A DNA stretch of 64,000 nt, taken from contig OZ024743.1 of NCBI GenBank assembly GCA_964016885.1, positions 45,508,001 to 45,572,000 of the forward strand. The letters run 5' to 3'. Made by a program: the position numbers and the translations under genes. This DNA comes from Eledone cirrhosa. Lineage: Eukaryota. The stretch's first letter is position 1. Each line of letters begins with the position of its first letter. Under the pieces are notes generated by a model. That model was not told the DNA's origin. It was given only the letters and a program-made list of their open reading frames with translations, and searched no databases. Below, piece after piece: positions 2,567 to 62,255 of this stretch.

Positions 2567-2778
2567 TTTGAAAAATTGGTCGTATTCAATAAAAAGCGGT
2601 AAAGAATGTTTGATAACATTTTAAATTGCTTGATGTACCAACTATAAAGAAACTATATTCTTTAAATCCACTTTAGTGTATTTCCACTGTTATTTTTACC
2701 GATAATCTTCGATTTGTGTGGAACTTTATCCTTATTTTTAACTATATACGTATATATACATATCAAATGTATATGCGT

Positions 2779-2897
2779 GAAGGCGTATGGCTGAGTGGTT
2801 AGAGAATTGGATTCGCAATCGTGAGGTTGTGAGTTCGATTCCAGAACAGGGCGATGCGTTATGTCCTTGAGCAAGACACTTTATTTCACGTTGCTCC
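2779..2897 (+). mobile_element. tRNA-derived SINE head (second family)
   Basis: A-box tggctgagtgg, B-box gagttcgattcc, core gtccttgagcaagacactttatttcacgttg shared with 18789 and 19594. Confidence 0.75.
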
Positions 2898-4131
2898 TTC
2901 TACCTGGAGTTGTGACCGATAGATAGTATTAGCAATTGGAAAGACCAATGGAAATGTATATGTGTGTGTGTACGTATGTGTATGTAATCTTACATGCATA
3001 CGCACACACTAATACATATATATCTTTATTGAATAATTATACAAAACGCAGCTGAAAACATCATAGGCTGACTATGAAGGATTTGTGCTAGATTTGTGCA
3101 ACCTTACGTGCATTAATTCCAACTATTCGTATTAATAACTGCATTGTTTCTTTCCAGGGACAATGTTGAAAAATAGACCTCATTTGGTCATTCCATGAGA
3201 GTATCTTAGTCAACCTATGAACTTTTTAGCCGACCCTTGAAGATCAAGAAGAGTAATGTGCAAGACATGGGTAGAATGGATCTCTATCGCTTTAGACGAT
3301 GAGTTTTACAATTGTAACTATTCGTTCATGATGCATCCTTTGCATGGCAACTGGAGGGCTATTCTGTAATATATATGGAATAAAAGGATATAAATTCGTG
3401 GATCAAATATTGAAAACTTTCCGTTCTTTTCAGTGACAGACAAAAATGTATTGCTACGAATAGACAGAATTTAATTAATGGACGTGCAGGAAATAATCTG
3501 TAGTTAAGCAATGATAGACTTCCCAGTTCGATCTCACTTAGTTACGGATTGACCCAGACTCCAAAAAACAAAACCTTGTGAGTGGAATGAGATAGGCAGA
3601 AATAGTGTGGTAACTTATCAGGTGTATTTTTCTTGTAATTCAAAAGGCCAACCTTCTTAACTATGCTCTACAGCGTCACACTGATTTTGTCAGAGATTTA
3701 CGTTAAAGATGCACGTGTCTATGACATAATCAAGCAATTATACGTCAATTCACTAGTCGAGCTTTCAGTTGATCGAACGACTGAATGCTCATTATCGAAA
3801 CCGACGGAAGATCCATCATCATCATTATCAGTTAATATAAACTAAACTAGCATTGAGCAGTGAAATTTCTCGATAATTTATATGTATTTATTCTACATAT
3901 ATTTCGTTGAATAACGTTAAATCTCTGTTGCATACTGGTGGATGAAACACTTCAAAAAGCCATTAAAAAAGGGGACTTAATGATGAGGAAATCCCTGTAA
4001 ATGGATGTCATGCCAACATTTCGATGAGTTAGTGAATAGTTCTATGTGTGTGTACGTGTGTGTGTACATGTGTGGTAGTATATGTTTGGGTGTGGCATAG
4101 AGTGATGCCATGCATTGAATATTATATCTTT

Positions 4132-4325
4132 AAAGGCGGTAGATTGGCAGTATCGGTAGAGGGTCTGACGCCATGCTTTCTAGCATAGACTTACGGCTCT
4201 TTACGTTCAGAGTTCAAATTCCGCTGAGGTTAACTTTGCCTTTCATCCTTACGGGGTCGATAAAATAAAGTACCAGTAATACACTGGAATAAGTGCTGGC
4301 CTTGTGCCAAAATTAGAAACAATTA
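4132..4325 (+). mobile_element. Nin-domain SINE, near full length
   Basis: Same family as 2389-2566. Confidence 0.8.
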
Positions 4326-22199: not shown

Positions 22200-24690
22200 T
22201 AATACCATACTAATAAATACCATGGTATTTTTAATAAAAATGTAATTAAACCATCATTCTCTACAACCCCTAATATTAGTTCTCATTTAGCTAGCACTAA
22301 CAATAGGAAAATTAGGGACAGCTACTCCTCTTTGCGTACTACTAGTCCTGATAGATCCATTAATGCCTTACCACCTGAGCAGACCTTCTTATAATAACCC
22401 TAGGAGTGATGCATCACTCATTCAGCCGGTCAATAGCACCCGGAAGTGTAACTGTAGAGTAAGTATTAACTGCCCTTTAAATGGTCACTGCCTCTCTAGG
22501 AACATTGTTTATGCTTGTGAAGTTAAGACAAATTCTTCTAATAGCACATATATAGGCTCCACATCTAATACTTTTAAAACTAGGTTTAATTCTCATATAT
22601 CTAATTTTAAGCATGTTAAGTTTAAGAACTCTACTTCTTTAGCACACCATATCTGGGATCTTAAAGGGGCTGGTATGCCATATAGCCTTAATTGGCGTAT
22701 AGTAGCACGCTCTAATAACCTATCAACACACACTAAATTCTGTAATCTCTGTATCCTAGAGACCCACTCTATAATTTTCTCTAGGGAAGTTTTGCTTAAT
22801 AGAAAGTCTGAGATATTTTCTTCCTGCCCCCATGCCATTTCTAATTCTTTCTTCTATTATAGACCTAAAAGTTCTGGTAGTTTAAATCGTATCCATTAGC
22901 TGCTATATTTCCTTATCTTTTTTGTTTAGGTTCATTTTGATTACCATCATCATTATTATTATTAGTTTTTTACAGCTTTTCGATTTTAGTTTCCATAGTC
23001 TTTTGGCTACCATACCCTATCTATCTTCTTAAGCATTATTATAGTTTCACTACTAACACCTTATGAGTTTATATCTTATTAAATACTTCGTTTGGAGTCT
23101 CATTCAACTAATGAACCTCCTCCTCTACACACTTAATATCTGCCCCTTCTATTATACTATATATAAATTTCACCTTTATGCTCCTTTTTATGATATTATA
23201 TAATATATTGATTTTACTTTTATGCTCCTTCCTATCCTCCATAACCTCTCTTCTTTCTGTTCCCATTGGTCTACCATAGTTCTATTTAGAGTCCTTTTAT
23301 TTGATAACGTTATTCGACTGAACGGAGCATATTTTACTCTATTCTTGATAATTTTATTGAGATATCTTAAACTTATACGATTTTGATGACTTAAACACTA
23401 GCCAATTTTGAAGTGACTAAATATGTATTTTAAATACTTTTAATATTAATTAATTTAAAAAGGTTTTCTAGTCAACTCTCCGGTTTACATTTCTATTTTT
23501 TTTCTTTTACTTAACCGCTTGTGACACCTAAGTAAATATGCTTGTTTTTGTTTTTCGATCTTCGGTTTATTTTATTTATTTTTTTACTACCACACGCTGT
23601 CTGTCTGATCATGTAATTTCATTAATATATGTCTGTGTATGTCAACCACGTAAAGCATTTCCTTACACTCTGTTTGCTATTTGATATTAACGTTGTTATA
23701 TCATATCATTTTTATGTAATCGCATTATAGATTTTAATATATGTCTGTTATTTGAGATACTGTTCTGTTATATTTTGTAATATTTTGTGATATTTTGGTA
23801 ATATTTATGCCAATGTAAAATGACTTGACCTCCGTGTATTTGTTACAATGGTATAGATATTTTTTCAGCACAATTTTTTCAACACAATTTAATTCTATAT
23901 GATTTTTTTCTTACCCTGTGTAAAACTTTATACTATTTGTTAACCTTGAATTATATGTATGATGTAATTTTATATATCTTTTAATGCCAATATTTTATAA
24001 TATTGTTATTATAATGTTATTATAATGTTTTTGTATTGTTTATGCACACTGACAGGGAATTATATATTATATTTTATTTTTATTTTTATCTTTATTCTTA
24101 TGTTTATCTTTATTATATTATACTGTAAACAATATATATATATATATTTAAATACTTAATAAGTGTTAGTTTGTGTTTGTACTAATGTGTATATGTATAG
24201 ATATATATATATATACATATATTAAGCTTTTTATTATCACCATCTATTATATTATATTATATTCTATATCGTACTGTAATTCTCGCATTATATTACCATT
24301 TGTGTTTCAAGTTTTTGCATTATACAATATTTGCAATATGGGTTCAGCATGTTAATCACTTCCTTGCTATTTGGTCTATACCTATGTTTGTAACTGCTCA
24401 CTCTTAATCTTAGCCAACTTTTCCTTGATATCTTTCCTAAGCTTTAATAGATGTATACTCCATATTCTTCTGAGTTTTTGGCTTGTATTGGCCGATAGTG
24501 CTTCTTGTAGCTTTACTTGCCCTGATGAGTCCTTAATAGGACGAAACATTGTTGGCTAATAAAGACTTTTGATGTATTGAAGGCTTCTTTGTTTTAATTT
24601 TTATAATTCTTCGGCTCTGTTTAATTACATTGAGCTATATCTTATACTGTCATTTCTATAATATGAAGAGGGTGTTTAACTCCAACACAC
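22200..24690 (+). mobile_element. 5'-truncated Hydra-type Penelope-like element: GIY-YIG plus ~1.7 kb AT-rich 3' UTR
   Basis: KYH..FN..IK.SFSTTPN; ORF 22363-22899 CNCRVSINCPLNGHCL..NIVY..YIGSTSNTFKTR..CNLC..LNRKSE..SCPH; terminal HHR followed by AATAAA. Confidence 0.85.
24519..24556 (+). ncRNA. Type-I hammerhead ribozyme, canonical core
   Basis: gcc CTGATGA gtcc ttaata ggac GAAAC att GTT ggc, then AATAAA. Confidence 0.75.
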
Positions 24691-26100: not shown

Positions 26101-26284
26101 TAGGAACAAGTAAGACCCCGACGGCTGAGCTCAAGCCGTTTCGACGGCTAATTCTGTACTGAATGAAAATTTATTCTGGTATTTAAATCATCTGGATCTA
26201 AATACCAGAATAAATTTTCATTCAGTACAGAATTAGCCGTCGAAACGGCTTGAGCTCAGCCGTCGGCGTCTTACTTGTTCCTAT
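26101..26284. repeat. Fold-back palindrome containing the 3' half of a hammerhead
   Basis: ~80-bp arms; GAAACGGCT tgagctc AGCCGTC forms a full stem III; related sequence at 9060-9115. Confidence 0.8.
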
Positions 26285-26688
26285 ATATATATATATGTAT
26301 ATAATATATATATAATATATATATATATATATGTATATATATGTATATATGTATATATATATATGTATTTATACATATATGTATATATCTATATATATAT
26401 GTATTTATACATATATGTATATATCTATATATATGATTTTGCGAGGTTTTTTATATGAAATCGTGTGTCGAAACAGATATTGTTATATTTGGGGAGGGTC
26501 ATATTTGCGTAATATTGCCAGAATTAATAACAGAACACACTCACTGTTTGGTTGGTTTTCGCTTCTCGCTGTCTTTTATATATATATATCTGCGATCTAA
26601 CTTACTCGGTCCTCAATGTTGCCATTGACTGACCGGCGGTCAAAAATAATACAGATACAATATAGACAAACACATATATATATAGTTT

Positions 26689-26730
26689 ACATAAATCTTT
26701 CGTTGCACATCTGCAACATCGTCAGTGGTG
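26689..26730 (-). ncRNA. Hammerhead motif in the Naiad 3' UTR (weak stem I)
   Basis: RC: cca CTGACGA t gttgca gatg tgcaac GAAA gatt TA tgt; same position as the 55448 HHR in the related element. Confidence 0.55.
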
Positions 26731-26999
26731 TTATATTCATTGTTCCTCCTGTTGTGTTGTATGTCTACGCCATTTTTTTTTGTTCAGTCTGTCTATATAT
26801 TTATTTATTTATTTGCTTGTTTGTTTATCTTATTTTATTTTGTCTTCTTTGCGCATGCGTTTGCGTGTGTGTATAGTGTTATGTGTGATGTGTGACTAGT
26901 GTGTATAGTGTTGTGTCTGCTGGGTGACTAGTGTGTGTTTATGTGCTTGTGTATGTATTTATTTATCTTATTTTATTTAATTTAATTTACTTATTTATT

Positions 27000-29345
27000 T
27001 ATACTTCTCTTAGGTCAGTGTTGTTTGTTTGGGTGTTGTTGTTGTTCCACTCATTCTTTCTGTTTAGCTTTGGTCTTCTAATTTCTATTTCACTGGCCTC
27101 TCTGATTTGCCTATCTGCTGGGTCATTCCTATGTTTAGATATTATTCTAATTTCTATGTTGTCTATGTTACCGTCATGATGTTGTCTAGCATGTTCGTAT
27201 AGTACTGACCCGTTTTTTCGTCCTTTTAGTTCCCCCCCAGTGTTGGTCTATCCTTTCACCTATGCTACGAGCTGTCTCACCTATGTATGTTGTTGTCGTG
27301 TTTCTGCAAGTACCCTCTGTACATCTTATGCTATAGACTACGTTTCTAGTTTTACAGTTTATCCGGGGGTTCACCTTACATATGATACATTTCCTATTGG
27401 TACAGTGGGTTTTCTTAAAAGGGTAGGTTTTGCTGATCAGGGATTTTATGGTGGTTCCTGGCTTTTCTACCACCTTTATTTTTAAGTGGGTCTTTCTCAG
27501 GGCCTTTCTACACTGGTTAGCTAATTTCCCTCCAGGGGTGGCGTCCACAAACATGACACTCTGATATCTCTGGTTGTCGTACCATGATGTGGCCTTCCCT
27601 ATCTTATGTCTAGCCCTATCTAAGCTATTCCATGATTTGCTCCTGTATAGTGGGCAAATTCCTTTCATGTCCAGTTCTATGAGGGTCTTATACTTTTCCA
27701 TGGCTCCTTCGTATACTCTGACTCTGTCTCTTTGGTTGTAGCCAGAGAACTGCATGCGGTTGATGAAGTGTTGGATGTGTCCTTCCATTTCTGTTGGGTC
27801 GCACATGCTGGACACATTCTTCATCACTCGTACCAAATCTGCGATCAGAATATTAAACTTAGCACTACTGGACATTGCTGAGTTTTTGAGTATCAGGTAT
27901 TTGGAGGCCATGGGTTTAGCATAGTGTGAGTGGAGAATTTGGGCTCTCTCGTCTATAGTGTTAATCCAGAGTTCTGTGTCTAATACAGGTAGTCTATTGT
28001 TAGGGTGTTTGGAAGGGAAGTCTATAGTTACAGTTATACTCTGGTGTATGGAATTAGCTATCTGCTGGATGCTTTCCATCGTGCTACGTTCTAAATCAAA
28101 CTTGTTAGTGCTCTCTAGTGGGGGTGTTCTTATAACTATATTGATATCGTCTACATAACGAGAGTACATGATGAGGTCTATGGAGCTTTCATTAAGGAGA
28201 TCTTTAAGTCTCCTTTCCCACCATACCATGAAAAGGTTGGCAACATCGCCAGCTATGCTGACGCCGATGGCTGCTCCCTCATTTTGGGTGTAGATTTTCT
28301 CATTGAACTTAAATATGTGGCCCTTTAGGGTAGTTTTGATACTAGCCCCTATTGCATGTGCGACCATTTTTCTTACCTGATCAGTGTTTTGGGGGGTCCG
28401 TATAGCTTTGGTCCACCCAATCCACCTTCCTATGGGAGTCTTTTTAGCCATTGAGGTTATGGTGGGGGGTCTACCTCTTATAGGTCTACTAGGGCAGAAA
28501 CATCTAAGGTCATGGCTGTCTAGGTAGTCAGTGTCGTAGGTAAGTCTAAGTAGGAGGCCCAGTTCGTCTGTGTCGACGTCGCAGAACTCCACCTCACTCT
28601 CAATGATCATCTCCACACATCTTTTCACAGCAAAATCAATGTTAATGGATGGGTACAGTGACACCACATCCATGCTGCCTATTATGCAGTTGGATAGGCT
28701 CCTGTTTTTGTTGCACTCACTGATTCTGCTGAGAAGGTCCTCTGTACTTTCACATACATCTGGGGACATCTTGATTATGGGGCGTATAACCATTGAGAGG
28801 AAGTAGGAGATCCTGTAGTTGCTAGCTATATTAGCTCCGCATACAGGTCTTGTTGGTGGTCCTGTTGTCGGGTCGTCGACTGTCTTGTGGTCTTTGCGGA
28901 GCCCATACAAGGGTGGTATGCCATTGTTAGACGCCTGGAAGTTGTTGGCAGTGCGTCTGCTTGGCTTTAGGATGTCAGTCCACATCATCATGTGAGCGTT
29001 GAGGATTTTTTCTCTCCCATCGTGTGTTAGTTGTGCAACTTCGCTCGTGTTGGTGATGTGGGGTTGCATTGCCTCGATGTAGTTCGGCATGCTATCTATT
29101 GACATCCTACCAGACTTATCTGTGGGTAGACACACTACCTCACCATCCCTTGTGCGCTGCTTGAGGCTAACCAAGCCTTCTACAGGTTTTATCCCAAGTT
29201 GTTGGGCCTCTGGTCTGCTCTGTCTCATAGTGTACCTGTCTACTACTTGTCTAATCTTATTTCTAGCTATGGTGAACTGTGCCTCCGTCTCGTCATCTAT
29301 TTGTTGTGGTATGCAAACTCTTTTATTAAAGGGTAACCTCGTAGG
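27000..29345 (-). pseudogene. PLE RT-endonuclease ORF, open over ~2.1 kb, frameshifted in the GIY-YIG C-terminus
   Basis: ORF 27186-29228 plus upstream open frame; distal frame continues ..RQIREASEI..PKLNRKNEW. Confidence 0.8.
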
Positions 29346-29348
29346 ATA

Positions 29349-29349
29349 G

Positions 29350-29389
<40 letters not shown>

Positions 29390-31874: not shown

Positions 31875-32250
31875 TATACGCACATACACAAGCATACGCA
31901 AAACCTTACCATAGGTATACAAACCCACGCACATATAAATATGTGTGTGTCTGCGTGTATACAAATAAATAAATAATTATATAAACGTATATAAATAAAT
32001 AAATAAATACGTATATAACAAGCACACACACATACCTACATATAAATACACGAATGTTCGGAGACATAAGTCAACTAAAGTGTATTTATATGTAGGTATG
32101 TGTGTGTGTTTGTTATATACGTATTTATTTATTTATATACGTTTATATAATTATTTATTTATTTGTATACACGCAGACACACACATATTTATATGTGCGT
32201 GGGTTTGTATACCTATGGTAAGGTTTTGCGTATGCTTGTGTATGTGCGTA
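31875..32250. repeat. Inverted repeat, ~175-bp arms, 28-bp spacer
   Basis: 31875-32051 is the reverse complement of 32080-32250. Confidence 0.85.
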
Positions 32251-32702
32251 TGTGTTTGCGTGTATGTATTTATTTATTTCTATTACTTCTGTATTGTATT
32301 TATTTACTTTGTTCTTAACTCTGTAGCGGAGATTCATCTGGTCTCCTAGTTAGAATTTTAGTCTACGACTTCTGCTATACCATTTACGTGGTTTTGTCTT
32401 TGCGTGCTATTGTTCTCCACGCTCCACATATGACGTATTATCTTCGTTTTTTCGTTCATTGCCAGAGAACGTCTCTATGCACCACCTAAGAGAACATTAG
32501 TCTACGACTTTTTTTATACCATAAACGTGGTTCTGTCTTTGCGCGTAATTGTTTTTCACCGCTCCTATTAATGACGTATTATTCGTTTTTTCCCGTTCTT
32601 TGCCAGCGAACGTTACCACGAACCTAAGTATCATCTTCCTGTCTTCCTCCGGTTGCAACGTTTTTTGAAATATCCAGTTCTGCGTTTACAGATTGACTTT
32701 GT

Positions 32703-37962: not shown

Positions 37963-38007
37963 GGGGGGGCGAAGTAGTTTCAGATGTTAAAGTCCTTTAA
38001 TGATAAT

Positions 38008-38082
38008 GCTGTGATACATATTTCAATGACGACAGTGGCCACACGGTTCGGTGTACCCAGTGCCGTGACATCATCAGACAGC
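38008..38082 (-). ncRNA. Hammerhead ribozyme (inverted copy)
   Basis: Mirror of 39355-39429. Confidence 0.6.
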
Positions 38083-39354
38083 TTCTTACATAATAAGGTT
38101 ATATTTCCGAGGTAATCCAAATTGAATCGACAGGGCAACGGACAAAGCGTGTGTTCTTGAATCCTTCGCCCGTTCCCTTGTGAGTCCCAATTTCACCCCA
38201 TCGGTCTGCGCAGGCGCAAGTCCGAAGTAAGTTGACCATCAACTACCGAAAGTTCTACGAAACTCGCCTAGGCAGGTCCCCCTCTCAACCAAACAATCAC
38301 CCCCATCCACTACCATGGGGATTGATTACACACACTGGAAATCCCTGCTACTGGATGGACATAAAATTATAAACTTTCGACAGGATAAATACGCGGAACT
38401 AAAAACAACGATAAACCCCTTATTTTCCTGCAGCAAATTGCATTTGCACAGAGGCCTTGAACGGAAGCCGCCTCACTTCATCAGATAACGAATTTTTATA
38501 TGCACTTTACATGGACAAAATTGACAATCATTTTAATCCTTTTAACCACTTATACCCTCATTTCCATAGTTTACCTTCCTCGTATATGTTTCTCATATAT
38601 ATCTCCTATCTCATTTTGCATCTGTATATTTTTTGTATTTTTTGTATTTTATATTTTGTATTTTTTGTTTGATTCATGTGATATAAATATTAACTATGTA
38701 TTTGCCTAATTACTACGTTTCATACTGTAATTTACCCTCCGTTCTACTGTACAGTACTATCGTTCAATATATGGATAATATATCTGTAATATTGATCCCC
38801 CTTTCAAAACTTCTTACTATAATTTAAACATCTCCCTATTTATTAGTTATTATATGTACATATTTTTTTACTTACTTCAATCAAGATTTTAACTTGTAAT
38901 TTTTTTAATTTCTAATTTTCAATCATAATTTCTCCTGTGAAACCATAATACCTAGAAATAAGTATATATACTCTTAGCGGGTGATGGTCAATTCTATTGT
39001 CCATGCATAATTTAGTGGTAGTATTGAGACCTATTGAAACTCATACTCTCCCACCCCACTAGGTTTCGGCCAACTGCCACTGGCAGGGGGACTAGCAGTA
39101 AACTATAACCGTGTCATATTACAGACCCGGATGGGGTGATTGTTTGGTTGAGAGGGGGACCTGCCTAGGCAGGTTTCGTAGAAATTTGGGGTAGTTGATG
39201 GTCAACTTCCTTCGGACTTGCGCCTGCGCAGACCGGCGGGGGTGAATTGAGACTCACAAGGGAACAGGTGAAGGATTCAAGAACAAACGCTTTCTCCGTT
39301 CCCTTGTCGATTCAATTTGGATTGCCTCGGAAACATAACCTTATTATGTAAGAA

Positions 39355-39429
39355 GCTGTCTGATGATGTCACGGCACTGGGGACACCGAACCGTGAGGCC
39401 ACTGTCGTCATCGAAATATGTATCACAGC
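39355..39429 (+). ncRNA. Type-I hammerhead ribozyme
   Basis: gctgt CTGATGA tgtcacggca...tgtcgtcatc GAAA tatgta TC acagc. Confidence 0.65.
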
Positions 39430-39644
39430 ATTATCATTAAAGAACTTTAACATCTGAAACTACTTCGCTTTTTTCTTATTCGATATATACTCCGTCGCTC
39501 CTATGTGGAAAAAGTACGTTGAGTCCTTGAATTGAATTGCATCAATATTTACCTTAAGTATATATATATATAGATCAATATTACAGATATATTATCCATA
39601 TATTGAACGATAGTACTGTACAGTAGAACGGAGGGTAAATTACA

Positions 39645-39732: not shown

Positions 39733-40386
39733 TGGCGCTCTGAAATAGCTATATATATATGAATGTATATATAGTGTATTTTGCAATACACTGTATGCTT
39801 AATTAAAAGCATTTCGAAGACATTATGCTATTGTTTTAGGGTAGTGACAGTCTCACTTACTTTAAATTTTCAGCAAACAGGGGGAGATAAAGCTGACAGA
39901 GCTATGTTTCTTAAACATAGTTCTGTCAGCTTTATCTCCCCCTGTTTGCTGAAAATTAAAAGTAAGTGAGACTGTCACTACTCTAAAACAATAGCATAAA
40001 GTCCTCGAAATGCTTTTAATTAAGAATACAGTGTATTGCAAAATCCACTATATATACATTCATATATATATATATATAGCTATTTCAGAGCGCCAATTCT
40101 AATTTTCAATTTCTGCTTGACCGGCAACCGCTCTGTATAATCAGTTCCTGATTATTACTAGAAATTCTATAAGAATCAAACATTCATGATTTTCAGCAAA
40201 CAGGTGGGGTACTTGGCTTTGATAAGTACCAATCAGTCCGAAACATGGCTCTGTCAGCTTTATCTCCCCCTGGTTGCTGAAAATGTGAAGTAAGTGAGAC
40301 TGTCACTGCTCTAAAACAATAGCATAAGGTCTTCGAAATGCTTTTAATTAAGAATACAGTGTATTGCAAAATACACTATATATACA

Positions 40387-40395
<9 letters not shown>
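39730..40395. repeat. Fold-back (39730-40098) plus 328-nt tandem unit with HHR
   Basis: ~180-bp arms centred at 39911; 39913-40065 repeated from 40241. Confidence 0.8.
40215..40259 (+). ncRNA. Hammerhead ribozyme, U3-A8 covariant core
   Basis: ggct TTGATAA gtac caatca gtcc GAAAC atggctct GTC agct; stem I extends through ttttcagcaa/ttgctgaaaa. Confidence 0.6.
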
Positions 40396-40431
<36 letters not shown>

Positions 40432-51070: not shown

Positions 51071-52501
<1,431 letters not shown>

Positions 52502-52714
52502 CGTTTCTGAATTTGTTTAGCAAGATTCTTTATCTGAAATCGTGTGTTGAAACCGATATTGTTATACTTTGGGAGGGTCATGTTGCCAATAAGAAACACA
52601 CGCACCAGTTGCTTTCACTTCAATTTAATTTAATATATATTTATAAATTTACAAATTTATAAATTTCTGGTTGGTTGGTTGGTTCCACAACCAGATAGTT
52701 GTTTATATATATAT

Positions 52715-52759
52715 AGTCATAGTTCTTTCGTCACACACTCTGTGACCTCTTCAGTGACT
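52715..52759 (-). ncRNA. Hammerhead ribozyme (left arm)
   Basis: Mirror of 55448-55492. Confidence 0.7.
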
Positions 52760-55447
52760 GGGGATTTCTTTCTTCGTTTCTGTGCCTTTCCTTTCTTCTA
52801 TCCTACGCCATTTTGTTTGTGTGTGGGTTGCGTGCTCAGTTTGCGCATGCGCCACATCCGGGTGTCTGTGTGTGTTTGTGTTCATTTTTCTATTTTTCTA
52901 TATTTGTTTGTTTATTTATTTATTTATTGTTGGTTGGTTGTTTGTTCTATGTGTGTGTGTGTTTTCATTTTGTCTTGTGTGTGTTTTCATTTTGTGTGTG
53001 TTTTCAATTGTAAGTTGTTTATATATGTGTGTGTGTGTTTTCATTTTGTCCTTAATTGTAAGTTGTGATGTTGCTGTTCCACTCATATTTTCTATTTAAT
53101 TTTGGTTTTAATTCTTTTATGCTTACTGCCTCTGTAATTTGCCTAAACATTGCGTCTTTCTTGTGTGTGGATTCTATTTTTATTTCTATGCTCTCTAATT
53201 TACCCCTGTGTTCTATCTTAGCATGTTGGTAGAGCACAGATGATTCTTTACTATCTTGGAGGTCTCGCCAGTGTTCATTTATTCGTTCCCCTATACTACG
53301 AGCTGTCTCACCTATGTACACTATATTTTTGTTTCTACATTGTCCCTCAGTACATCTTATGCTATATACTACATTTCTAGTTTTACAGTTAATATGGGGG
53401 CTTATTTTACAGGTTATACATTTCTTATCTATACATGAGGGTCTTTGGAACGGGTATGTCTTGCTAATAAGTGTTTTTACGGAGGTACCAGGTCTTTCTA
53501 CTATCTTAATATTGAGATTATGTTTCTTTAGGGCCCTTCTAAATTTGTAGGCTAGTTCACCTCTAGGGGTTGTATTGATGAACATTACACTCTGGTATTT
53601 ATTGCTATCATACCATGAGTTTATTCTATTGGCCTTGTTCTTAGTTCTTTCTATTCTATTCCAAAATTTGCTCCTATACAAGGGGCAGGTCCCATTTATG
53701 TCATTATTTACCATTTTTTCCCATTTTTTCCCATTTGGTTCTGGCTCCTTTATACACTCTGATTCTATCTCTCTGATTGTAGCCAGAGAACTGCATACGG
53801 TGGATGAAGTGTTGTATGTGTCTCTCTAGTTCTTCGGGGTTGCACATGCGGGACACATTTCTCATCACCCGTATCAAATCCGCAATCAGTATGTTGATTT
53901 TGGTATGGTCCGAAATGGCCGAGTTTCGGTGGATCAGATGTTTGGAAGTCATGGGTTTGGCATAATGGGAATGGAGGATTTGTTTTTGGTTGTTAATAGT
54001 ATCTAACCAGAGCTCTGTGTCTAGTACAGGTAATCGATGGTTGGGGTGTCTACTTGGGTAGTCTATAGTAACTCTAATGCTCTGGTGGATGGAGTTTGCT
54101 ATAAATAGCAAACTCCATCCACCAGAGCATTAGAGTTACTATAGACTACCCAAGTAGACACCCCAACCATCGATTACCTGTACTAGACACAGAGCTCTGG
54201 TTAGATACTATTAACAACCAAAAACAAATCCTCCATTCCCATTATGCCAAACCCATGACTTCCAAACATCTGATCCACCGAAACTCGGCCATTTCGGACC
54301 ATACCAAAATCAACATACTGATTGCGGATTTGATACGGGTGATGAGAAATGTGTCCCGCATGTGCAACCCCGAAGAACTAGAGAGACACATACAACACTT
54401 CATCCACCGTATGCAGTTCTCTGGCTACAATCAGAGAGATAGAATCAGAGTGTATAAAGGAGCCAGAACCAAATGGGAAAAAATGGGAAAAAATGGTAAA
54501 TAATGACATAAATGGGACCTGCCCCTTGTATAGGAGCAAATTTTGGAATAGAATAGAAAGAACTAAGAACAAGGCCAATAGAATAAACTCATGGTATGAT
54601 AGCAATAAATACCAGAGTGTAATGTTCATCAATACAACCCCTAGAGGTGAACTAGCCTACAAATTTAGAAGGGCCCTAAAGAAACATAATCTCAATATTA
54701 AGATAGTAGAAAGACCTGGTACCTCCGTAAAAACACTTATTAGCAAGACATACCCGTTCCAAAGACCCTCATGTATAGATAAGAAATGTATAACCTGTAA
54801 AATAAGCCCCCATATTAACTGTAAAACTAGAAATGTAGTATATAGCATAAGATGTACTGAGGGACAATGTAGAAACAAAAATATAGTGTACATAGGTGAG
54901 ACAGCTCGTAGTATAGGGGAACGAATAAATGAACACTGGCGAGACCTCCAAGATAGTAAAGAATCATCTGTGCTCTACCAACATGCTAAGATAGAACACA
55001 GGGGTAAATTAGAGAGCATAGAAATAAAAATAGAATCCACACACAAGAAAGACGCAATGTTTAGGCAAATTACAGAGGCAGTAAGCATAAAAGAATTAAA
55101 ACCAAAATTAAATAGAAAATATGAGTGGAACAGCAACATCACAACTTACAATTAAGGACAAAATGAAAACACACACACACATATATAAACAACTTACAAT
55201 TGAAAACACACACAAAATGAAAACACACACAAGACAAAATGAAAACACACACACACATAGAACAAACAACCAACCAACAATAAATAAATAAATAAACAAA
55301 CAAATATAGAAAAATAGAAAAATGAACACAAACACACACAGACACCCGGATGTGGCGCATGCGCAAACTGAGCACGCAACCCACACACAAACAAAATGGC
55401 GTAGGATAGAAGAAAGGAAAGGCACAGAAACGAAGAAAGAAATCCCC

Positions 55448-55492
55448 AGTCACTGAAGAGGTCACAGAGTGTGTGACGAAAGAACTATGACT
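55448..55492 (+). ncRNA. Type-I hammerhead ribozyme
   Basis: agtca CTGAAGA g gtcaca gagtg tgtgac GAAA gaac TA tgact. Confidence 0.72.
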
Positions 55493-55645
55493 ATATATAT
55501 ATATAAACAACTATCTGGTTGTGGAACCAACCAACCAACCAGAAATTTATAAATTTGTAAATTTATAAATATATATTAAATTAAATTGAAGTGAAAGCAA
55601 CTGGTGCGTGTGTTTCTTATTGGCAACATGACCCTCCCAAAGTAT

Positions 55646-55696
<51 letters not shown>

Positions 55697-55998
55697 TATA
55701 TATATATGTATATCCATTAAGGGTGTAAGCAGCGATTCTTTGCTTAAACTTTTATTTTCATAAATATTTGCTCTATGGTTTTGTATATTTATATATATAT
55801 ATTATCCTTGTCAAGCCCACTTCGGATTTTAATCTTCACATTTATTATTATTACTATGTATATATATGTGTGTGTGTGTGTCTGTGTGTGTGTGTGTGTA
55901 AAAGGTAAACAGAAATAACAACACAATCGGTACAGTATATGGAAGGGATATATTAGGTTAACGCTTGATATATATACATAATTACAACAGTGACATAA

Positions 55999-57121: not shown

Positions 57122-57558
57122 TGTGGTAAAATGTAATGCATCCTAGTTGGATAGTTCAATGACATAGACGTGAGGGAAGGTCCCTCGTCTATTTACCATT
57201 TTGTGTTTGTGAGAATTATAAGATAGTGAGTGAGTGTGTGTGCAAACAAGACAATAACCACAACGAGAGAGTTAAATTCAACAATTGTAAATAATGGTGA
57301 TTTATTTACACTACAAATGGAGCATACCAAATGTTGACGTAGTCAGTTGTGGTGAAAGGAACGTATTACCATTACAAAAGTATTGTTGGGTTTATTGTTT
57401 GCTGTTCCCTTTGCGGCTTTCTATGGCGTGGTACAGAGGCTGTTTTCTGGCGTGTGATCAGTCTGCTTTCTAGTGGCTGTCTGTTTACTCCTCGCGTTCT
57501 CAACCAGCGGGAGATAACTAGGGTTGTTCTATCAAGAGGCGTGAGGCGTCTTACTACA
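57122..57558 (-). repeat. 3' LTR
   Basis: About 7 substitutions and one 2-bp indel versus 61380-61814 (manual count). Confidence 0.93.
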
Positions 57559-57782
57559 GTATCCCCTGCCAGATTTTCAAATCATCGAAAATCGATGTCA
57601 TTACTCACATGCGGAGTAAGATGGCGATCAATGCAACAAGGGGGAGCTATTCGCTCTACCAAAAATTGAATCCAGAATAAGGATTTGAAAAATGTTTAAA
57701 AAAAACAACATGCATGCATAAAAAACAAGGCAAAGAAAAAGCAGAAACACAGAGGCAAAAAAAAAGGTGCAGCTAACATAGT

Positions 57783-60736
57783 CTAAATATAGACGGTGCT
57801 GCAAACTTTTTTGGGCCAGTGGACCCTACGATCTGAAAGGGTCGTGGTCTTGTAACGTGGCGATGGTGGTGGTGTAGGGACAGGCGATGATGGTGGTTCA
57901 GGAACAGGCGTTCGCTCAACAGGCAAATACGAAGGGGTTCGTGGATCAGGAACCACAGCGTCCGTGTCAAGGTGCACCTGCTTAAGCCTGTCTATTGTAA
58001 CTGTCTCCCTGGACCCCTTAATATCCAACGTGAAATGCTTAGCCGAGCGCGCTAAGACACGGTAAGGTCCAGTGTAAGGCTGTGTGAGCGGCGGCTTCAC
58101 AGAATCTTTCCTAACAAAGACATGCGTCCACGAGGCAATATCTCTCGGGACAGCAGTCTTGACAGTTTGTTTCCTAGTGTCCATTGGCGGCAAATCCTGG
58201 AAATAGGACCGCAAACGGGACACGTAGGAAGCGTGATCTTGGGCATCAACATCGATAGGGGCAAGCATTTGCCGAGCAACGTCAGAGGGGCACCGTACAG
58301 TACTTCGGCCGGTGAAAATCCAAAGTTGACCGAATCCCTAGTAGCACAATAGGGAGGTACTCGCTCAATGCGCCGAGTCCATTGAGGCCATTAAGGAGGC
58401 CTTCAGTTGTCGGTGAAAACACTCCACCATACCATTCGAAGCGGGATGGTACGCCGTAGTTCTAATGCGTTTAGCACCAATTAATTTTGACAGCTCGAGG
58501 AAAAGGCTCGACTCGAACTGTCGTCCACCGTCGGTAGTTATTGTGGATGGAACTCCATAACGAGATATCCATCCAGATACAAGAGCACGTGCTGTTGTCT
58601 CCGCGGTGATGTTTTTCAAGGGGATGGCCTCAGGCCATCTCGAAAAACGGTCAATGATGGTCAGCAGATAAGAATAACCATCGCTGACAGGCCAAGGTCC
58701 CACTATGTCAATATGAATATGAGAAAAACGCTCATCTGGGTTAGCAAAGGTACCCAGGGGAGCCTTGACGTGTCGATGGACCGTTGATCTCTAGCAAGCG
58801 ACGCAGGAACGGCACCAAGCAGCAATTTCACGCCTCATATTTGGTCAGAAAAATCTAGCTGATATGAGCTTTGCTGTGGCAGAAGATCCTGGATGCGAGA
58901 TACTATGTAATGCCAGAAACACGGTCCGATGATGATTCTCTGGAACGAAGGGCCTAGGCACGTCCAAAGAGACGTCGCAGAGGATTTGGCCAACTGCAGT
59001 CGACAGAGGCAAGTATTTCATCTCGCAATTCGCAAACTCAGGTGATGTAACATCCAATGACTCAAGGGGAAGCTGATCCGCAGCCAAACGAGTCAGATCT
59101 ATGTCAGAGGGTGACGAGATCGCTGTCACGGGTAAGCGGGACAAAGCATCGGCCGCTGTATTTAGTGAACCCGGAATGTGCTGGATATCACTCGTATATT
59201 GTGAGATGAAATCAAGGTGTCTCGTCTCTCTGGGCGAGTATTTATCAGCCTTCGCTCTCAAAGCAAAAGTCAATGGTTTATGGTCAGTGAGGATAGTAAA
59301 TTGTCTACCCTCTAGCACATGTGAAAATTGTTTCACGGCCAAATAGATGGCTAAAAGCTCTCTTCCAAAGGTTCTGTAGCGCGTCTCAGCAGGTTTCAGC
59401 TTTCTGGAAAAAAACTCCAGCGGTTGCTGGTAACCATTGATGTTTTGGTGTAGTACTGCGCCCACAGCGATATCCGATGCATCAACACAAAGCGTTAGCT
59501 TTGCACCGGGTACCGGGTGAGTCAGTAACGAAGCATTAGCCAAAGCAGTTTTGGCGTGCTGAAAATCAGCAAGTTGAGTGTCTGTCAAAGAAATATCTTT
59601 GTTCTTCCTCCGACAATTTTTCAAAATTTCTGTCAGGGAGAAAAGCAATTTTGCACAATTTGGCACCAAACGCCTATAAAAGTTAATCAGATCTAAGAAC
59701 GGGCGTAACTGACGTAGTGAGGTCGGTGGAGGCAAATCCTCTATGACCTTAACTCGCTCAGGCCGGGGTCGAATACCGTCAGCATCGATGACGTGACCCA
59801 AGAAAGTCAGTGACTCAGCACCAAAAACACATTTGGGCGCATTAAGCTGCACGTTATACGCCTTCAATCGGCGGAAAGAAGATTCAAATGGTGCGTATGT
59901 TGCTCTTGAGAAGAACTAGCAATGAGCAGGTCGTCAATATAGGTATAGACGAAATCGAGGCCGCGAGTAACCTCATCCATAAACCGCTGAAAAGTACTAG
60001 CGGCATTCCTTAATCCGAACGGCATAGTCAAAAACTCGAATGACCCAAATGGCGTAACTATAGCCGTTTTTGGAATGTCATTTTTATGGACAGGAATTTG
60101 ATGGTACGCACGAATTAAATCCAGTTTGGAGAATATCTTGCATCCCTGCAACGAAGACGCAAAGTCTTGCAGATGAGGGATAGAATAACGGTCCGGTACC
60201 GTTATCGAATTTAGGCGTCGATAATCTCCAGTAGGTCTCCAATCGCCATTCGCTTTCGGTACCATGTGTAATGGGGACGCCCACGAGCTCGTGGAAGGAC
60301 GAATAATCCCCATTTGCAGCATATGATCAAACTCTGATCGTGCTGCTTTGAGTTTGTCCGGAGGCAAGCGACGAGGACGAGAAAAAACGGGAGCACCAGT
60401 TGTAGATATGAAGTGCTCCGTGGTATGAGTTGGTTCATCAACTCGAAAATTTCTCTGAGTCAGTTGCGGGAACGAGTTCAACAGCGCATTGTAAGGATCA
60501 CCGGTGTTAGCAAGAAAAAAGGTCGGGCTAACCGTTGGAACTCCTGCTGCCTTGCCAACAACAGTTAATCCAGTGATTAGGTCTTGGACCGAATCTGCTA
60601 GATTAGGGGGAAGTCCGCTAATCAGTACAGCGAGGCGCTGGTCAGATTCGGTCTTACAGACCGTAAAATACGCCTGTAACTGGGCAAACCACATCTTAGG
60701 TTTTCCAGTAAAGGCGGGCATATGTGGCACATTCAT
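57783..60736 (-). pseudogene. pol: gag-pol remnant: Gag N-terminus fused to RT-RNase H-integrase; frameshifts and stops
   Basis: WFAQ gag motif; [26 protein letters not shown]; DAS..RELLAI..TDHKPL; HPG..CxxC; [25 protein letters not shown]; PYTGPY. Confidence 0.9.
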
Positions 60737-61363
60737 GGTAACGTTTAAAATTAAAAAAATATATATATACATATATATCTAAACAGCAATTAATGTACCC
60801 TCGTACAGTGAAAAGCGAACAGCCAAAATTGAGAAAAAGTTAAAGGTCAAAAAGAAACAGACATTCAAAACATTAGGAAATATGAAAAATACATAAAATA
60901 CATATATATATCTTTTAAAAAAAAAATGTTCCATCAACTTCTGTCCCCTCGTGTTGCTTCAACGAACCAGCCAAATCAAATAAGGTGAAAAAGAGAAAAA
61001 AAATGTTTGTTTTACAATATATCCACGCTGGATATCAACAAAGGTAGTCAGTGGCTAAAAATCCCTTAGAAAAAGGTAAGGCATGTATATACCCTGCGGG
61101 GCAGTAATGTTCACAAAAAAAGTTTCATCTCTTTTCTCTTGATCAGTCATGGAACACACACGCAATTCCAAAAATGTCCCCGTCCTGGCGGAAAATTACA
61201 AAACGGGGAAGGAACGCAACGCCATCTTGGAAAAATTCTCTTTTTTTTTTTTATTTGTGTAAGTTGCGAAAAGGTTGGCAACGGCAGTGAAATATTCCAG
61301 TGAATAATACGGGCTGCTTTAAATTATTTACACGAATGAATAAAAAGGCTAGATAAAATTCTT

Positions 61364-61378
61364 ACGTCGGGGTCACCA
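61364..61378 (-). promoter_or_regulatory. Primer-binding site complementary to the tRNA-Trp 3' end
   Basis: RC TGGTGACCCCGACGT, 1 nt from the 5' LTR. Confidence 0.85.
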
Positions 61379-61379
61379 G

Positions 61380-61814
61380 TGTGGTAAAATATAATGCATC
61401 CTAGTTGGATAGTTCAATGACATAGACGTGAGGGAAGGTCCCTCGTCTATTTACCATTTTGTGTTTGTGAGAATTATAACAAAGTGAGTGAGTGTGTGCG
61501 CAAACAAGACAATAACCACAACGAGAGTTAAATTCAATAATTGTAAATAATGGTGATTTATTTACACTACAAATGGAGCATACCAAATGTTGACGTAGTC
61601 AGTTGTGGTGAAAGGAACGTATTACCATTACAAAAGTATTGTTGGGTTTATTGTTTGCTGTTCCCTTTGCGGCTTTCTGTGGCGTGGTACAGAGGCTGTT
61701 TTCTGGCGTGTGATCAGTCTGCTTTCTAGTGGCTGTCTGTTTACTCCTCGCGTTCTCAACCAACGGGAGATAACTAGGGTTGTTCTATCAAGAGGCGTGA
61801 GGCGTCTTACTACA
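61380..61814 (-). repeat. 5' LTR
   Basis: Adjacent to the PBS. Confidence 0.93.
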
Positions 61815-62255
61815 GATTCTTAGCCACTTTGAATTCGTTTCTGGCGGAGATCTTGTAAAAAAGATTTTTGTCCAATTGAGTTTATCTCCTGATGATTTCC
61901 AATCTCGTTGATTTATCCAAGATCGGATATATCCAAAAAGGAATGAAACTGGCGGCAGTAGAAATACGTTGATGATTTTGGTATGTTTATGTACATTTTT
62001 TCTTCTAACTTTAATTTTGTACATAATTATGTATGGTTAACTATACGTTTAGTCAATTTCTAGAGGCTATCAGAAATACTGGATAAATTTTCTGTAGCTG
62101 TGAGTCGCGGATAATGAGCTATATTATTTACCTATTACTTCTTCATAAGTATATTTTAAACTTATAGCCTCGTTTAAATGATTTTTTGTGTGGTTGATTT
62201 CTGCTGATTGGGAGAAGAAATATTGTATATATTTTATCTAATGATTCTATGGACT

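Follow-up and report, generated by a model that had tools for sequence, protein, structure and literature searches.

The locus studied here raises the question of how a retroelement copy and a mirror image of itself, both carrying the same defects, came to lie head to head in one insertion. All coordinates are positions in the window, the whole 64-kb stretch of DNA that was analyzed, unless they are marked as reference, in which case they refer to a unit of 4286 nt from a natural full-length copy (L038).

Structure of the insertion

A sequence-only reading of the window had proposed an essentially perfect palindrome of about 3.1 kb (52556–55651) with 1547-bp arms. A near-perfect palindrome is present in the assembly, but its right end lies at 55653, and a tail on the left had been overlooked. 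The mirror part of the left arm (52556–54102, minus strand; reference 2680–4228) is indeed 1547 bp long and contains the RT end, linker, GIY-YIG, 3′ region and pseudo-LTR (pLTR), but the right arm (54105–55653, plus strand; reference 2678–4228) measures 1549 bp. The two are reverse complements with no substitutions, and their sole difference is a 2-nt indel within a run of (TA)n, where an extra TA stands beside the right-arm hammerhead. The proposed 2-nt loop is the AA at 54103–54104, which fits the element's own sequence when read with the right arm (reference 2678–2679).

The whole insert occupies 52498–55653 and is asymmetric. The left arm is longer by a 58-nt one-sided tail (52498–52555, minus strand; reference 4229–4286), the last AT of which is common with the target, and in all it spans reference 2680–4286; the right arm terminates at reference 4225–4228. 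The layout is head-to-head with one tailed ('long') and one untailed ('short') end. (TA)n abuts both insert ends, at 52384–52497 with a GTG interruption on the left and at 55654–55692 on the right, and no target-site duplication is readable in such a target. The 2-kb flanks have no mirror similarity. A search of the right flank for an empty allele recovered only an older repeat. Positions 55714–55860 of this flank are an older high-copy repeat, approximately 88% identical to many loci and often found with a short inverted partner.

Element identity and coding capacity

The insert is a young, 5′-truncated EN+ Penelope-like element (PLE) with RT and GIY-YIG sequences in (TA)n. The Penelope identity assigned by the sequence-only reading is supported by the frame, motifs and domains of its relatives. 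The arms are 98–99% identical to intact relatives, one of which encodes, in a single ORF of 1278 aa, the motifs DKSG and YVDD, a CX4CxxC linker and, C-terminal to the RT, a GIY-YIG domain. With part of the protein as the query, the GIY-YIG family PF01541 was matched at E 1.1e-4 (22.8 bits against a cut-off of 22.6) and RVT_1 at E 2e-4, under its curated cut-off; the whole protein as the query gave no Pfam match, and a PDB sequence search returned an intron endonuclease at E 0.15 only. In the right arm, the frame encoding the linker and endonuclease lies at 54472–55155 (plus strand). The element's translation has two Cys residues between the VVY and YIG motifs and His residues downstream. This corresponds to the CCHH motif, two cysteines of which lie between GIY and YIG, that the parts of Craig et al. 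2021 used here (PMC8557442) give as a feature of EN+ PLEs. A pLTR from partial tandems, an inverted copy and a one-sided tail, all expected of EN+ PLEs, are also present.

The zinc finger in the RT-EN linker, CX4CxxC, conforms to the CX2-5CxxC pattern of Neptune and Nematis, and a linker zinc finger rules out the Penelope/Poseidon and Hydra clades according to the same parts of PMC8557442. The clade is therefore probably of Neptune or Nematis type, as judged from the features described in that paper. An assignment to Naiad/Chlamys was rejected: the endonuclease of those elements is N-terminal, and the one here is C-terminal. The L038 frame contains an in-frame low-complexity insert rich in Asn, Thr and His at residues ~250–480, which recalls the Asn-rich inserts described for Adineta Penelopes (PMC3846280, in part).

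Both arms start approximately 30 codons behind the RT YVDD motif, and the copy is therefore inactive regardless of any frameshift. The short duplication that had been called an inactivating mutation does shift the frame relative to intact copies, but 5′ truncation makes this copy dead in any case. The insert is a dead-on-arrival copy, and we propose no function for it.

The head-to-head layout in the family

The family is large. The site of the duplication has 3471 exact wild-type matches in the assembly, and a marker of the young subfamily identifies 412 arms. Exact matches number 11,466 for short termini and, for long termini, 6388 on the forward strand, with a reverse count of 7367 that includes double counts. 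The first set of loci, drawn from the top 41 matches and including the present one, comprised 20 in which both ends could be observed, and every one of these combined a long with a short end. Outside the 20 were three loci with a single arm or with a switch to a diverged relative, and one that was incompletely covered. A further 20 young loci were examined, and the 17 with both ends in view had the same combination, bringing the total to 37/37. On contig C1, mixed pairs made up 41 of the 46 head-to-head pairs and same-type pairs five (p = 2e-8), in a pairing of the 181 ends at the head of the listing (92 long, 89 short), of which 89 had no exact-match partner.

The head-to-head tailed/untailed layout is the family norm in this genome. 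Extrapolation from 46 pairs in 39.6 Mb gives some 3,500 exact-match inverted pairs. Published EN+ PLEs likewise include inverted 5′-truncated copies and have a tail at one end, according to the portions of PMC8557442 and PMC3846280 used here. At one locus (L060:2877–3086), a young arm is fused to one from a diverged subfamily, which suggests that two different RNAs entered one insertion.

Private indels point to a single template

The same short duplication in both arms, noticed at the outset, is 10 nt long and frameshifting; it lies at 54471–54496 (plus strand) and is mirrored at 53711–53736 (minus strand). A search of 3.0 Gb returned exactly two matches to it, the two arms. Exactly two matches, again the two arms, were obtained for a deletion of 12 nt within the 3′ non-coding region (52874–52914, minus strand; 55293–55333, plus strand). 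Neither the duplication nor the deletion occurs anywhere except in these two arms, in a comparison that included 3471 wild-type sites and 412 arms of the young subfamily. The origin of both arms from one template molecule is therefore well supported by sequence comparison, and the single template envisaged by the sequence-only reading appears correct.

We rejected the stronger argument that a unique shared mutation proves snap-back, since asymmetric loci also share genome-unique variants between their arms. One control variant had five matches, in all five units of a five-unit asymmetric locus, and another had two, in the two arms of another asymmetric locus; a third was common to nine loci. 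At L153, where neither arm contains the other, a 14-nt frameshift is present in both arms. The duplication site is furthermore a slippage hot spot, with 14 insertion matches at 12 loci. Where both arms cover it, the insertion is in one arm only at five of six informative asymmetric loci. The asymmetric L153 and the present symmetric locus have the insertion in both arms. At L151, where the arms are offset by only 41 nt, an insertion is confined to one arm. In the first 24 loci, a further three frameshifts were arm-specific. For the five-unit control locus (L033–L035, G000:C4:116.26–116.28 Mb), whose units all carry the genome-unique substitution, either a tandem source that the assembly lacks or templating by a circular RNA may be considered.

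How the arms were made

Arm lengths across the family bear on where synthesis began. In 25 of the 48 asymmetric loci that have a single unit on each side, the arm extending further 5′ is the untailed one; in the remaining 23 it is the tailed one. An untailed arm that is the longer was not copied from the tailed arm, and the tail could not be copied from the untailed arm; neither arm then contains the other, and RNA must have been the template at both ends. Simple snap-back was therefore rejected as the account of the whole family. It is likely that both target strands primed reverse transcription, as suggested by the family-wide arm lengths together with in vitro work on another PLE (PMC11167929).

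The snap-back synthesis proposed by the sequence-only reading, which by itself cannot explain the family, is favored for a subset of loci to which the present one belongs. Axes that are symmetric to within 16 nt account for 17 of 70 junctions, compared with 1.9 expected by permutation, and this locus is of that near-symmetric class. Four of the 17 axes sit on the element's natural palindrome. This 26-nt pLTR palindrome (reference 4120–4145; window ~55545–55570) is the inversion axis in L065, L066, L090 and L105. In the youngest set, the arms of six symmetric loci differed by 0 substitutions in 10,472 bp and those of 12 asymmetric loci by 10 in 15,514 bp (p = 0.006), in a test for which the six were picked as top BLAST hits and the p-values treat sites as independent. 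All scored young loci together gave 8 substitutions in 16.8 kb (9 symmetric loci) versus 64 in 35.3 kb (24 asymmetric loci), with 7 of the 8 in one locus and 43 of the 64 in three; 12 junctions had been left out of the scoring for short overlap, age or failed anchoring. Snap-back fill-in is the favored, though not proven, explanation for the lower number of arm-to-arm substitutions at near-symmetric loci.

Short stretches of homology, templated duplications and brief snap-back tracts occur at junctions in the family, and snap-back tracts or templated inserts are visible at L046, L057, L127, L136 and L144. These features may resemble polymerase-theta joining. The axis of the present locus offers at most 1–2 bp for priming a snap-back.

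For this locus, we consider it probable that the palindrome arose in one 5′-truncated insertion from a single template, with both strands priming 58 nt apart and one cDNA snapping back. Both cut target strands would likely prime reverse transcription, at two start sites separated by these 58 nt. One of the cDNAs would then, again likely, snap back at the axis and supply most of the second arm, and the new sense strand may anneal to the partner cDNA primed at the other end.

A serious rival is twin run-off from one broken RNA. Two RTs would copy the same 5′-broken, defective RNA from the long and short starts and run off its end, and the cDNA ends would be joined, for instance through pairing between untemplated A's on one and T's on the other. 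In this scenario, the indels would pre-exist in an RNA whose source is absent from the assembly and which was moved in trans. Several observations agree with this. Private variants in all units of asymmetric loci indicate that sources are often missing from the assembly, the frameshifted template of L153 is represented in both arms, the axis AA agrees with the element when read with the right arm, and trans action of a Penelope ORF is reported in the sections of PMC3846280 used here. However, independent RT passes should leave arm-specific errors, as they do in asymmetric loci, and the youngest symmetric arms have 0 in 10.5 kb; the three other frameshifts in the first 24 loci were likewise arm-specific. 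We therefore regard twin run-off as possible but unlikely.

Later homogenization of the arms is improbable. Arms alike from the start could in principle have been kept so by hairpin- or cruciform-driven conversion that spread both indels; perfect palindromes with a 2-nt spacer can extrude, and conversion would also yield the substitution deficit. Other symmetric loci nevertheless retain arm differences (2/286, 2/266, 10/247, 7/4023 and 1/1639), and the TA difference is retained at this locus. The arm homogenization that had been put forward is, in a strong form, not supported by symmetric loci that keep 1–10 differences, and any such effect is weak at best.

The weakest explanation, a long-read fold-back or polishing artefact, would account for the near-perfect symmetry but is very unlikely on the assembly sequence, where the flanks are unmirrored although read fold-back would mirror them, where one arm is tailed while its partner ends at the second terminus of the family, the arrangement seen in 37/37 young loci, and where the axes of other loci hold templated inserts that read fold-back does not produce. 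When three contig sets and one RAD-seq run were aligned to 54040–54700, the matches were swamped by thousands of family copies; among the pieces listed, none spans the axis or the duplication, which neither supports nor refutes an artefact.

More generally, we lean slightly toward viewing PLE insertion as an asymmetric two-ended reaction in which one RNP uses the tailed start on one strand and the inner start on the other, always one of each, with the cDNAs joined by short-homology annealing or snap-back. We found no published twin-priming model of PLE inversions in the open-access literature searched.

Predicted hammerheads and RNA consequences

The hammerheads face outward, as had been noted, with cores starting at 55453 (plus strand) and 52754 (minus strand). 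A motif search and fold predict minimal type I hammerheads at 55448–55492, with cleavage after 55487, and at 52715–52759, with cleavage at 52720. Core, helix I and helix II are present, as expected of a pLTR hammerhead, and the fold z-score is only −1.1 to −1.3. An Rfam scan of the window returned no hammerhead at the palindrome among the matches listed (150 of 161). Like the minimal hammerheads of metazoan PLEs described in the parts of Cervera and de la Peña 2014 used here (PMC4209133), the predicted motifs have an extra base between 9 and 10.1, a G10.1–C11.1 pair, a long helix II, a 5-bp helix I and a tiny helix III. According to the same source, such hammerheads did not cleave as single motifs, and dimer action in direct tandem is predicted for them; here the motifs occupy opposite strands, so that each transcript would contain only one.

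The minimum-energy fold of a read-through transcript, an equilibrium prediction, pairs 3180 of 3221 bases and places the hammerhead entirely in duplex with the other arm. As the hammerhead is predicted to be fully duplexed and is of the dimer type (PMC4209133, in part), the ribozyme-defined end suggested for a dsRNA hairpin is unlikely. A ribozyme-processed hairpin RNA gene was rejected likewise, since its hammerhead would have to fold freely. An ADAR footprint in retrotransposed young copies was also looked for and rejected: only four of 43 private substitutions are A>G, although A makes up 41% of the element, and there is no A>G excess. Inverted pairs, where they lie within transcripts, would be a potential source of dsRNA. 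Window frames of at least 120 aa are transposon frames with no evident host exon, though the window may still be intronic.

Neighboring elements

Other repeats are present in the window, and the microsatellites may be of a cephalopod-like kind. An older related Penelope-like copy (26440–29350, minus strand) is 71% identical; it contains a 737-aa frame and a hammerhead of its own at 26725, and its tailed end, likewise set in (TA)n, is similar. A separate palindrome of ~170 bp adjoins it at 26110–26282. A Ty3/Gypsy-like LTR retrotransposon at 57267–61815 has 293-bp direct repeats that are 99% identical and a pol in pieces on the minus strand. Further hammerhead cores occur at 24506–24576 (plus strand; Rfam HH9, E 0.0054, below the gathering score) and 18166 (minus strand). 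Inverted repeats at 31876–32251, 37969–39468 and 39745–40405 have arms of 165–286 nt that are 92–95% complementary.

Significance and comparison with known systems

The locus is an ordinary, real-looking dead copy of a known kind, with modest mechanistic value. It is a marked record of the PLE insertion reaction, in which private indels tie the arms to one molecule. The pairing of a long with a short end, the fact that either arm can be the longer, and the excess of symmetric axes across the family are testable constraints on insertion. If true, the asymmetric two-ended reaction would provide a single mechanism for tail, head-to-head copy and palindromes alike, and the two-ended model could be tested at scale in this genome, where exact-match termini of each kind number more than 11,000.

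In LINE-1 twin priming, the second target strand primes on the RNA and short homology joins the ends of the cDNAs; the stretches of RNA represented in L1 inversions do not overlap. Unlike in L1, both primings here would occur at the 3′ end, so that the arms overlap and a palindrome forms.

The PLE insertion reaction is described as still undefined in the parts of PMC8557442 considered here. The closest systems are the EN+ PLEs of Craig et al. 2021 (PMC8557442) and Arkhipova et al. 2013 (PMC3846280). As far as the portions of these papers used here go, they share with the present family partial tandems, a head-to-head copy, a tail at one end, (TA)n targets, a pLTR hammerhead, palindromic junctions and an Asn-rich frame insert. 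The tail is 58 nt here and 30–40 nt in those elements, and the inverted copy here, unlike theirs, equals the main copy in length. Arkhipova et al. proposed self-priming on an antisense template, and Craig et al. proposed endonuclease resolution as the origin of the tail; in contrast to both proposals, the arm lengths in the present family suggest that both ends were primed.

Frangieh et al. 2024 (PMC11167929, in part) reported that, in vitro, Poseidon from Anolis carolinensis cleaves both strands of AT-rich target sites and extends each of them, and that it has two internal RT start sites, with the tail being the stretch between them. Hammerhead cleavage was dispensable, and a dimer was predicted. 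Extension on both strands and a tail lying between two starts are common to that system and our reading of the present locus. Anolis Poseidon nevertheless belongs to another clade, as Penelope/Poseidon elements are described as being without the linker zinc finger (PMC8557442, in part), and it exhibited no start-site difference between strands, whereas each insertion here has one site of each kind. The portions of PMC11167929 used here do not treat inverted copies, and head-to-head inverted copies are the layout of the present family.
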